A DNA stretch of 64,000 nt, taken from the IMG/VR virus record IMGVR_UViG_3300045988_141150, one strand, 5' to 3'. Shown here piece after piece: positions 19,319 to 20,704 of this stretch. The notes under the pieces were generated by a model. That model worked only from the letters and a program-made list of their open reading frames with translations. It was not told the origin of the DNA and searched no databases. Both the position numbers and the translations under genes were made by a program. Every line of letters begins with the position of its first letter. Position 1 is the stretch's first letter. The DNA is from a virus.

Positions 19319-20704
19319 ATGCCCGCTATTATTTCATTTATCCTTCCGGCAATTCCTGTAGTTCTTATCGTGCTACTGGCAATTTTCATTTTCCTCAATG
19401 GTTATGTAAAGGCTCCGCCTGATATGGCTTACATTATCAGTGGTTTCCATAAGAAGCCTCGAATTCTTGTTGGTAAAGCTGGCTTGAAAATTCCTTTCTT
19501 CGAACGTCTGGATAAGCTGGCTCTTGGCGCAATTCAGATTGATGTAAAGACTGGATCTGCGGTCCCTACTGCCGAATACATTAATATTCGTGTTGACTCT
19601 ACGGTTTCCGTTCGTGTGGGTAGAGATCCTGAAATGATTGCGCTCGCCGCTCAGAACTTCCTTAACGTAGGCCGTGATGAAATTTCTCGTAAGATTAACG
19701 ATCTTCTTGAGGGTAATATTCGTGAGATCGTCGGTCAGATGAAGTTGACTGATATGGTTAGCGATCGTAAGCTGTTTAGTGAAAAAGTTCAGGAGAACGC
19801 AGTTCCTGATCTGGCACGTTATGGCCTTGAGTTGATTACCTTTAACGTTCAGAACTTCTCTGATGATAATGATGTTATCACTAACCTCGGTATTGATAAT
19901 GTCGCTCAGATTAGCAAGAACGCGGCGATCGCTAAGTCCAATGCGGAACGTGAGATTGAGGTCGCTCGTGCGGAAAATGCTAAGCAGTCTAATGACGCTA
20001 AAGTTAAGGCCGCTGAGGAAATCGCAATCCGCAATAACGATCTTGCTATCAAGCAGGCTCAGTTGAAGCAGGAAGCTGATACAAAGAAAGCTCAGGCAGA
20101 GGCGGCTGCTGGCATTGAGTCTGAAAATCAGCGTAAGCTCAAGGATGTTGCTGCGACTAATGCGAATATCGCAAAGGCCGAGCGCGAAGCTGAACTGAAG
20201 CAGAAGGAAATCGAGCTTAAGGAATATGAACTGACTGCATTAGTTCGTAAGCAGGCTGATGCTGATAAGTATGCTGCGGAAAAAGCGGCTGAAGCAGATC
20301 TGATTCGTCGCCAGAAGGATGCTGAAGCTAAGGCTTATGAGATCGAGCAGGAAGCAAAAGCTATGCGTGCTCGCGCCGAAGCGGAAAAGTTCGCAGCTGA
20401 ACAGAAAGCTGCTGGTATTGCGGCCGTTGGTGAAGCTGAAGCTACAGCGATCGACAAGAAAGCAGAAGCACAGAAGAAGATGGGTGAAGCTTCTATCATT
20501 GAAATGTATTTCAATGCAATGCCTCAAATCGTGGCAAATGCGGCAGCCCCTCTTACCAATGTGGATAAGATCGTCCAGTATGGCGATGGAAACTCTGCTC
20601 GTCTTGTAAAGGATATTATGGGTTCCGCAAACCAGGTCATTGAAGCAATGTCTGAAAATGGCATTGACATTAAAGAGATGCTTACAAAGGCATTGAACAA
20701 GTAA
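19319..20704 (+). CDS. flotillin-like SPFH/band-7 protein (FloT/YuaG-type)
   Basis: N-terminal TM helix, SPFH domain, roughly 200 aa of EA-rich coiled coil and a C-terminal flotillin tail; high-expression codon usage; no TAG. Confidence 0.7.
   Translation: MPAIISFILPAIPVVLIVLLAIFIFLNGYVKAPPDMAYIISGFHKKPRILVGKAGLKIPFFERLDKLALGAIQIDVKTGSAVPTAEYINIRVDSTVSVRVGRDPEMIALAAQNFLNVGRDEISRKINDLLEGNIREIVGQMKLTDMVSDRKLFSEKVQENAVPDLARYGLELITFNVQNFSDDNDVITNLGIDNVAQISKNAAIAKSNAEREIEVARAENAKQSNDAKVKAAEEIAIRNNDLAIKQAQLKQEADTKKAQAEAAAGIESENQRKLKDVAATNANIAKAEREAELKQKEIELKEYELTALVRKQADADKYAAEKAAEADLIRRQKDAEAKAYEIEQEAKAMRARAEAEKFAAEQKAAGIAAVGEAEATAIDKKAEAQKKMGEASIIEMYFNAMPQIVANAAAPLTNVDKIVQYGDGNSARLVKDIMGSANQVIEAMSENGIDIKEMLTKALNK

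Follow-up and report, generated by a model that had tools for sequence, protein, structure and literature searches.

The flotillin gene and its protein family

We analyzed a 64,000-nucleotide stretch of viral DNA (IMG/VR record IMGVR_UViG_3300045988_141150; hereafter the window) that encodes a protein of the flotillin type. The coding sequence (19319-20704, +) specifies 461 amino acids (aa), starts with ATG, and includes a TAA stop codon. Direct reading of the sequence places a Shine-Dalgarno motif, AAGGAG (19305-19310, +), 8 nt 5' of the ATG. A hairpin resembling an intrinsic terminator, with a 15-bp stem and a T-run (20708-20750, +), begins 4 nt past the stop codon. An initial annotation of the DNA had described the protein as a transmembrane helix followed by an SPFH domain, a coiled coil rich in Glu and Ala, and a C-terminal tail; all four elements were recovered by Pfam, AlphaFold2 (AF2) modeling, and composition.

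The protein opens with a hydrophobic membrane anchor at residues 2-28 (19322-19402, +), whose sequence, PAIISFILPAIPVVLIVLLAIFIFLNG, contains no charged residues and was modeled as a helix. Residues K31, K45, K46, and R48 come after it, and by the positive-inside rule the bulk of the protein past the anchor is predicted to be cytoplasmic. The SPFH domain spans residues 31-210 (19409-19948, +), where the predicted local distance difference test score (pLDDT) is 80-92. An Ala/Glu/Lys-rich helical hairpin of about 228 aa occupies residues 186-413 (19874-20557, +; 26% Ala, 14% Glu, and 12% Lys), with helices at 186-292 and 307-413 and a break at 293-306. It is collinear with residues ~160-370 of flotillin-1 and corresponds to the coiled-coil wall of flotillins. 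The C-terminal tail, residues 414-461 (20558-20701, +), contains two short helices in the AF2 model, and the alignment with flotillin-1 extends into it as far as residue 444. The monomer model as a whole had a pLDDT of 77.8 and contained every expected element.

The SPFH domain matched Pfam Band_7 (PF01145) with an E value of 9.6e-21 and a score of 75.1 bits, compared with a cutoff of 23.6. The NCBIfam model for FloT (NF058507) aligned from end to end, with residues 13-457 on positions 5-474 of 477 and a score of 217.3 bits. When we searched PDB sequences with phmmer, flotillin-1 was the best match (E 5.5e-44, residues 33-444 on 6-404 of the chain), followed by flotillin-2 (E 1.2e-36). The only other SPFH protein matched at E <= 0.01 was QmcA (E 1.6e-9), and neither HflK nor HflC was matched at that threshold. 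A Foldseek search with the AF2 model likewise placed the cryo-electron microscopy chains of flotillin-1 and flotillin-2 at the top (E 5.7e-23 to 1e-18, 400-430 aligned columns), while HflK/C, prohibitin, stomatin, QmcA, erlin, and MVP followed at 1e-11 or weaker. No SMC family was among the Pfam or NCBIfam matches of the protein. Because an SPFH core is present and flotillins rank first, a generic coiled-coil or SMC-like protein does not describe it. The gene product is a true flotillin, a member of the flotillin subfamily of the SPFH superfamily, as the initial annotation had proposed.

Two scores count against this identity: the Pfam Flot family (PF15975) reached 16.8 bits over residues 344-447 against a cutoff of 27, and the FloT score falls far short of the equivalog cutoff of 700 bits. 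Because both are below their cutoffs, the protein is best regarded, on its sequence, as a diverged member of the flotillin family and not as the equivalent of FloT. The Flot region is collinear with flotillin-1 despite its low Pfam score. A precomputed PF15975 match is present in some close phage relatives, and bacterial relatives at ~50% identity score ~39 bits, which is above the threshold.

FloT (YuaG) of Bacillus subtilis and its Clostridia homologs have the same order of anchor, SPFH domain, Ala/Glu-rich coiled coil, and tail, and chromosomal flotillins are 50-71% identical to the window protein. In contrast to the bacterial proteins, the window flotillin is phage-encoded, is ~20-50 aa shorter, and has host-like codons in an otherwise AT-biased genome. 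In the yuaF-floT operon, FloT is accompanied by a partner of the NfeD family; such a partner is absent beside the window flotillin and also beside the Clostridia chromosomal homologs that we examined. Mammalian flotillins are anchored by acylation and form a 1:1 hetero-oligomer, whereas the single phage gene makes a homo-oligomer likely and its product carries an N-terminal hydrophobic helix as anchor. Mammalian flotillin-1/flotillin-2 (PDB 9BQ2 and 9L3G) is the best match among solved structures, with 28% identity over ~430 Foldseek columns. By homology to these structures, a similar membrane-attached cage is expected for the phage protein.

Genomic setting, distribution, and origin

We found the flotillin in 48 IMG/VR contigs, mostly of 100-200 kb, at 55-99% identity. 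The order of genes in these loci is invariant: a kinase, a phosphoesterase, the flotillin, a variable insert of 0-4.7 kb, an unknown open reading frame (ORF), and PhoH. In the window, the conserved 5' neighbors are an AAA_33 kinase-like gene (17942-18472, +) and a Metallophos_2 phosphoesterase (18457-19017, +), both assigned by Pfam. The conserved 3' neighbors are a 145-aa ORF recognized by synteny (o20890; 20890-21327, +) and a PhoH-like gene (21619-22881, +; PHROG 2765). The ORFs that flank the flotillin, at 19029-19292 and 20890-21327, had no Pfam match. The kinase and phosphoesterase are syntenic 5' of the SPFH position in all related loci (given below as L numbers). In L198, the two are fused into one ORF of 369 aa (5443-6552) and the flotillin is absent; this fusion suggests that kinase and phosphoesterase work together. 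The variable insert lies just 3' of the flotillin terminator (window ~20750-20890), where relatives have 0 to ~4.7 kb and the window has none. The inserts of L004 (11387-14515), L017 (11375-14000), and L033 (9719-14384) contain no ORFs with recognizable domains.

The flotillin gene lies in a stretch of phage genes for replication and RNA repair. PHROGs identified topoisomerase II subunits, DNA ligase, a Sak4-like protein, DnaB, primase, a 1337-aa polymerase, NrdD, and PhoH, and the window also encodes three tRNAs. Among cultured phages, the closest relative of the polymerase, at 39% identity, is YorL from the SPbeta-like Bacillus phages, which points to a host in the Bacillota. Could the flotillin be a mis-binned bacterial fragment? 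Its GC content at third codon positions (GC3) is far above that of its neighbors, and identical copies occur in metagenome-assembled genomes (MAGs) labelled Clostridium sp. SUG910 or Mollicutes. However, the whole phage synteny is present on those MAG contigs, and the syntenic flotillin position is kept in more than 50 viral contigs with phage genes on both sides. The flotillin is a phage gene and not a piece of host DNA, and its carriers are a clade of ~100-200 kb gut and rumen phages that recode TAG.

A phage-like ENA contig, L049 (129,958 bp), encodes a flotillin that is 43% identical and lies in different synteny, beside a 5'-3' exonuclease, a Big_2 protein, and NT5C; therefore, more than one group of phages may bear flotillin genes.

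The initial annotation had noted that flotillin homologs are rarely reported in phages, and full-length flotillins are indeed rare among deposited phage genomes. Of 50,697 such records searched with tblastn, nine gave a match, and most of these are metagenomic fragments or probable host DNA; those above 40% identity were all unannotated gut 'Bacteriophage sp.' contigs. The 10 kb around the gene had no megablast match among deposited phages, and a PHROGs scan of the flotillin had none either. In metagenomes, the family is common: one cluster at 90% identity, to which JGI gives the name 'flotillin', spans 357 contigs.

Records of SPFH-domain ORFs in phage genomes go back to 2006 (PMC1524935; also PMC5834331, PMC7760394, and PMC13239085). 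They include SPFH or Band 7 ORFs, of unknown role, in the T4-like phages 44RR, Aeh1, and RB43, in Stenotrophomonas phage DLP5, and in Erwinia jumbo phages, as well as a 'flotillin family protein' of Vibrio phage KIT04. The KIT04 protein matches the window protein over the SPFH part only, at 26% identity. In the papers that we consulted, no analysis of conservation, selection, or function of the ORFs is reported. In contrast to the earlier examples, the protein described here has every part of a flotillin, is conserved throughout a clade, and is interchangeable with other SPFH subfamilies. Two apparent precedents were set aside: a paper on phage Perkons concerns integration into host floA, and a marine 'flotillin' match concerns flotillin-associated rhodopsins. 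We therefore class the window protein as a phage-borne addition to a known family. In the literature that we searched, we did not find clade-wide conservation, standard-code and host-codon status, an interchangeable SPFH position, or the apparent return transfer to bacteria.

The lineage itself has been described for another gene. Gut phages ct2Ri15 and ctOa11, of the same lineage as the window, were reported to encode the 'first viral MVPs' (bioRxiv 10.1101/2023.11.10.566534). That preprint discusses the 'Clostridium sp. SUG910' MAG, in which a contig with the window's synteny encodes a flotillin of 100% identity. The preprint treats MVP only, and its text contains neither flotillin nor SPFH nor band 7.

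Chromosomal flotillins of Lachnospiraceae (Roseburia, Agathobacter, and Blautia) and of one complete Eubacteriaceae genome share 50-56% identity with the phage protein and lie in ordinary chromosomal context. Closer relatives, at 66-71% identity, are encoded on rumen Oscillospiraceae MAG contigs of ~61% GC (L054-L061). These genes are fully adapted to high GC, with GC3 of ~0.9. The one contig of this set whose context we examined, L055, is truly chromosomal, with the flotillin beside cytochrome c552, ResB/CcsA, and FtsW. Phage and Oscillospiraceae flotillins formed one clade in 198 of 200 bootstraps. Phage flotillins alone were monophyletic in 0 of 200, and the bacterial group fell within the phage radiation in 195 of 200. 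These trees are neighbor-joining only and sample bacteria through the 80 top-ranking loci of a pattern-based scan, which tempers what can be drawn from them. Given a single syntenic phage position and the nesting of the bacterial genes, the simplest reading is one acquisition followed by a return. The flotillin was probably acquired once, anciently, from a Clostridia host, and a later transfer from phage to bacterium appears to have reached one rumen Oscillospiraceae lineage. This would be a probable case of a housekeeping-type scaffold passing from a phage to a bacterium.

We then asked what occupies the flotillin position in more distant relatives, using a scan for presence or absence anchored on alignment of the upstream phosphoesterase. 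The scan returned 80 loci, 75 of them evaluable downstream. A scan anchored on PhoH reached near-identical phages only and was uninformative on this point. Flotillin occupied the SPFH position in 46 of the 75. All loci with a phosphoesterase at least 68% identical and enough downstream sequence carry flotillin, while deeper lineages are mixed. At the flotillin position of L231, adjacent proteins of 353 and 286 aa are HflK (E 1.2e-43) and HflC (E 1.3e-36) by their matches to E. coli. In four loci (L236, L237, L247, and L248), the phosphoesterase is followed immediately by a short SPFH protein, and in five (L199, L203, L205, L233, and L234), an SPFH gene of ~300-330 aa lies 2-5 kb upstream. Of these five, we compared the L199 protein with PDB and found it to be prohibitin-like (E 1.7e-19). 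L217 and L226 encode divergent flotillin-like proteins of ~510 aa. All seven sequences that we submitted to Pfam passed the Band_7 threshold. No locus has more than one SPFH type, and this holds for the whole 64-kb window. The pattern is one of non-orthologous replacement within the SPFH superfamily. Since relatives carry HflK/HflC or a prohibitin-like protein instead, these phages seem, from their gene content, to need an SPFH scaffold.

Codon class, TAG avoidance, and selection

The flotillin gene has the highest GC3 in the window (0.419). It encodes 95% of Gln with CAG and 77% of Lys with AAG, and it leaves TTA, CCA, ATA, AGA, and GGA nearly unused. This is the opposite of 21 other large window genes pooled for comparison, which use 83% CAA, 80% AAA, and 43% TTA. 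The initial annotation had noticed that the flotillin shares its codon set with genes for MVP and a vWA protein, and the counts bear this out. A discrete codon class, in which CAG makes up 88-100% of Gln, comprises the flotillin, an MVP-like gene (5875-8373, +), a DUF2828 gene, which is the vWA gene (4222-5757, +), and an RNA-ligase-like gene (12506-13885). Three further ORFs (1281-2096, 32041-32310, and 34571-35518, all +) are also rich in AAG and CAG and avoid NNA codons. None of the three has a significant Pfam family, and the last matches PHROG 2367 (function unknown); they speak neither for nor against a reading of the class as highly expressed genes. The alternative SPFH genes, too, lie above the median of their own locus for an index of AAG and CAG use.

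Because bacterial relatives prefer AAG and CAG genome-wide, the codon class is host-like. The phage tRNA-Gln, with anticodon UUG (165-238, +), fits the CAA-rich bulk genes and not the flotillin class. The flotillin keeps the class in most of the divergent phage lineages, although synonymous divergence (dS) exceeds 1. Because the class persists despite synonymous saturation, ongoing selection is favored over an import that has not yet ameliorated. The same persistence, added to the phage synteny and to the end-to-end flotillin alignment with its SPFH core and no SMC match, refutes the idea that the gene is a mis-binned bacterial fragment, a recent passenger with donor codons, or a coiled-coil protein outside the family, for which the sub-cutoff Flot score might otherwise speak.

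The phage recodes TAG, because the NrdD gene (51384-53612, +) is interrupted by in-frame TAG codons at 52764 and 52983 and its glycyl-radical motif, RVTGY, is reached only by reading past both. A suppressor tRNA was not found in the window. Frames lengthened by TAG readthrough include 22872-24245, 32364-33383, and 40578-42344. That the flotillin has no TAG, as first annotated, is correct but uninformative inside the window, because most window genes also lack an in-frame TAG. Across the clade, the avoidance is real: flotillin genes have a single in-frame TAG in 24,459 codons. The genes just past the terminator have 3.5-7 per 1000 (20 in 5,656 codons of o20890, 72 in 19,941 of PhoH, and 32 in 4,602 of o24247), every in-frame stop counted there being TAG, and many relatives carry an in-frame TAG in o20890 and PhoH. 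MVP, DUF2828, and the phosphoesterase had none in the clade-wide count. The only phage lineage with an in-frame TAG in its flotillin is L036 (~10001-11419), where a single codon cuts the standard-code ORF to 156 aa. A hairpin with a T-run follows the flotillin stop codon in 17 of 19 lineages, with differing stem sequences, and this terminator is the border between TAG-free and TAG-containing genes.

Judged from the sequence, the ribosome-binding site, terminator, codon class, and TAG avoidance indicate a gene that is well expressed and readable with the standard code. A published model of recoded phages provides a basis for the timing of standard-code and suppressed genes (bioRxiv 10.1101/2021.08.26.457843), and expression of the flotillin before, or independently of, TAG suppression would fit that model. 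Early and abundant production, which the initial annotation had thought probable, is consistent with the strength of the ribosome-binding site, the conservation of the terminator, and the retention of the codon class, as well as with TAG avoidance. The flotillin also provides a gene-level marker that separates standard-code from recoded expression classes in TAG-recoding phages.

Purifying selection on the flotillin is very strong. Between relatives that are 98-99% identical, dS was 0.20-0.33 and the nonsynonymous rate (dN) 0.005-0.007, giving dN/dS of 0.020-0.024. Deeper pairs gave dN/dS of 0.03-0.18, mostly with dS above 1. The flotillin is often conserved as well as or better than its neighbors; in L037, it is 64% identical, compared with 32% and 41% for the topoisomerase subunits. 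Such constraint bears on whether the gene is cargo for superinfection exclusion or defense, that is, a membrane SPFH protein that blocks DNA entry by competing phages or serves a module resembling abortive infection. A swappable accessory gene beside a hot spot for variable inserts is typical of 'moron' regions, and the morons recorded in other phages include SPFH ORFs (PMC5834331). However, a dN/dS of ~0.02 and one syntenic position over deep divergence are unlike cargo with fast turnover. No PADLOC-DB family matched the flotillin at E <= 0.01, and our literature search found no joint occurrence of 'SPFH' and 'anti-phage defense'. We regard a defense role as highly improbable.

The initial annotation had linked the flotillin with MVP, whose shoulder is SPFH-like, in membrane remodeling. 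One form of this idea is that the two proteins build a membrane-attached compartment specified by the phage. They do share an unusual codon class and TAG-free status, and flotillin is present on 19 of 26 viral contigs that bear MVP. Foldseek also matched the flotillin model to MVP structures of vaults (E ~1e-8), and the MVP of this phage lineage has already been described (bioRxiv 10.1101/2023.11.10.566534). However, 11 kb of unrelated genes separate the two in the window, and many flotillin lineages have no MVP within 10 kb (L024-L031, L033, L036-L042, L045, L046, and L048). The codon class also takes in the RNA-ligase-like gene and others, which argues for an expression class and not a complex. 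Thus, the shared codon class and frequent co-occurrence stand, while the functional link between flotillin and MVP is weak and a joint scaffold decidedly unlikely. Vaults are cytosolic and are not known to require flotillin.

The MVP-like protein has 832 aa with MVP_shoulder and a Vault_3 repeat, and the DUF2828/DUF7788 protein beside it has 511 aa, both by Pfam; we regard the two as genomic context of the flotillin. The DUF2828-MVP pair recurs in L017-L023 and L032. The preprint on viral MVPs contains no mention of 'vWA', does not discuss the DUF2828 neighbor, and reports no TEP1 or vPARP homolog (bioRxiv 10.1101/2023.11.10.566534).

Proposed role

We propose that the phage owns a true flotillin that would form a membrane cage and perhaps act on clients of the FtsH type, a reading to which we assign a probability of roughly 55%. 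In this scheme, the protein would be translated with the standard code and tRNA pool of the host, probably before or independently of TAG suppression. The N-terminal helix would insert into the membrane, so that SPFH domain and coiled coil would face the cytoplasm. The protein would then oligomerize into a flotillin-type dome that encloses a patch of host membrane, similar to the cages of flotillin-1/2, HflK/C, and prohibitin. During infection, such a cage might tune or sequester host FtsH or act likewise on other membrane clients; more broadly, it might keep the membrane organized and intact while the phage replicates.

Flotillin of B. subtilis and mitochondrial prohibitin have been linked to FtsH-type proteases, and HflK/HflC-FtsH is tied to the control of lambda lysogeny. 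Because flotillin, HflK/C, and prohibitin share cages linked to the FtsH family, host FtsH or another membrane client is the most specific hypothesis for the role of the phage protein. SPFH cages have a precedent in solved structures (9bq2, 9l3g, 7wi3, 9cz2, and 8rrh), and the link of HflK/C with FtsH comes from structures. In E. coli HflK/HflC-FtsH (PDB 7WI3, 7VHP, and 9CZ2), an SPFH cage surrounds a membrane protease, and the HflK and HflC pair of L231 lies at the flotillin position. The window flotillin differs from HflK/HflC in being a single gene, in matching it ~11 orders of magnitude more weakly than flotillin in Foldseek, and in being predicted to be cytoplasmic and not periplasmic.

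A fuller version would join all of these elements. Here, the SPFH module of large gut phages of Bacillota (flotillin, HflK/HflC, or prohibitin-like) would be interchangeable at a single genomic position and expressed with the standard code from host-optimized genes. Its cage on the host membrane would capture or tune a host FtsH-type protease or another client and thereby govern what becomes of membrane proteins of phage or host, a parallel, encoded by the phage, to the classical Hfl system of the host. The phage flotillin would also have returned to rumen Oscillospiraceae. As a whole, we consider this version improbable.

Several points weigh against the proposal, beyond the profile scores and the tree sampling given above. 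No SPFH gene lies within 6 kb of the anchor in 20 of the 50 evaluable deeper loci, and the SPFH position of L198 is empty; the flotillin is an accessory gene, dispensable for this type of phage. The codon class could in principle stem from repeated exchange with hosts and not from selection for expression. Timing, abundance, oligomeric state, and the FtsH link are all predictions. Finally, HflK/C of E. coli faces the periplasm, whereas the flotillin is predicted to be cytoplasmic, so equal function across SPFH types is not guaranteed.

The flotillin may instead maintain the membrane with no protease client at all. It would replace or boost host flotillin, keep the envelope working over a long replication cycle, and avert premature lysis or abortive infection that targets the membrane. 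The host protein supports membrane fluidity, cell-wall synthesis, and membrane-protein stability. Cellular relatives at 50-70% identity in the likely host group mean that the phage protein could slot into host pathways. Bacterial flotillins govern membrane fluidity and MreB-dependent peptidoglycan synthesis (PMC7360373) and stabilize unfolded membrane proteins (PMC11222466). An abundant structural protein would account for the host-like codons and the strong purifying selection. The upstream neighbors may also fit, being probable counter-defense or repair genes. The run at 10009-19017 (+) encodes an RlaP-like nucleotidyltransferase, a metallophosphoesterase, an OB-fold RNA-ligase-like protein, NADAR, a lambda-phosphatase-like gene (16470), the AAA_33 kinase, and Metallophos_2, and its content suggests a module for RNA repair or counter-defense. 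However, maintenance alone leaves substitution by HflK/HflC or prohibitin-like proteins unexplained, as both are better known as protease-associated cages than for any effect on fluidity, and a loss of host flotillin during infection would have to be assumed. Membrane maintenance is the main rival but, on balance, unlikely.

The function of bacterial flotillin and SPFH cages is still debated, and here a virus retains one under very strong selection, with host-like codons and readable with the standard code. The natural interchange of flotillin, HflK/HflC, and prohibitin-like proteins suggests that the three SPFH subfamilies share an activity that is important in infection. The phage locus offers a compact system for probing what SPFH cages do, and it adds a membrane-organizing function to the repertoire of large gut phages.

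Elsewhere in the window, the sign of the GC skew flips at ~58 kb and ORFs move to the minus strand (~58000-64000). This switch may be a module boundary or may be related to replication.

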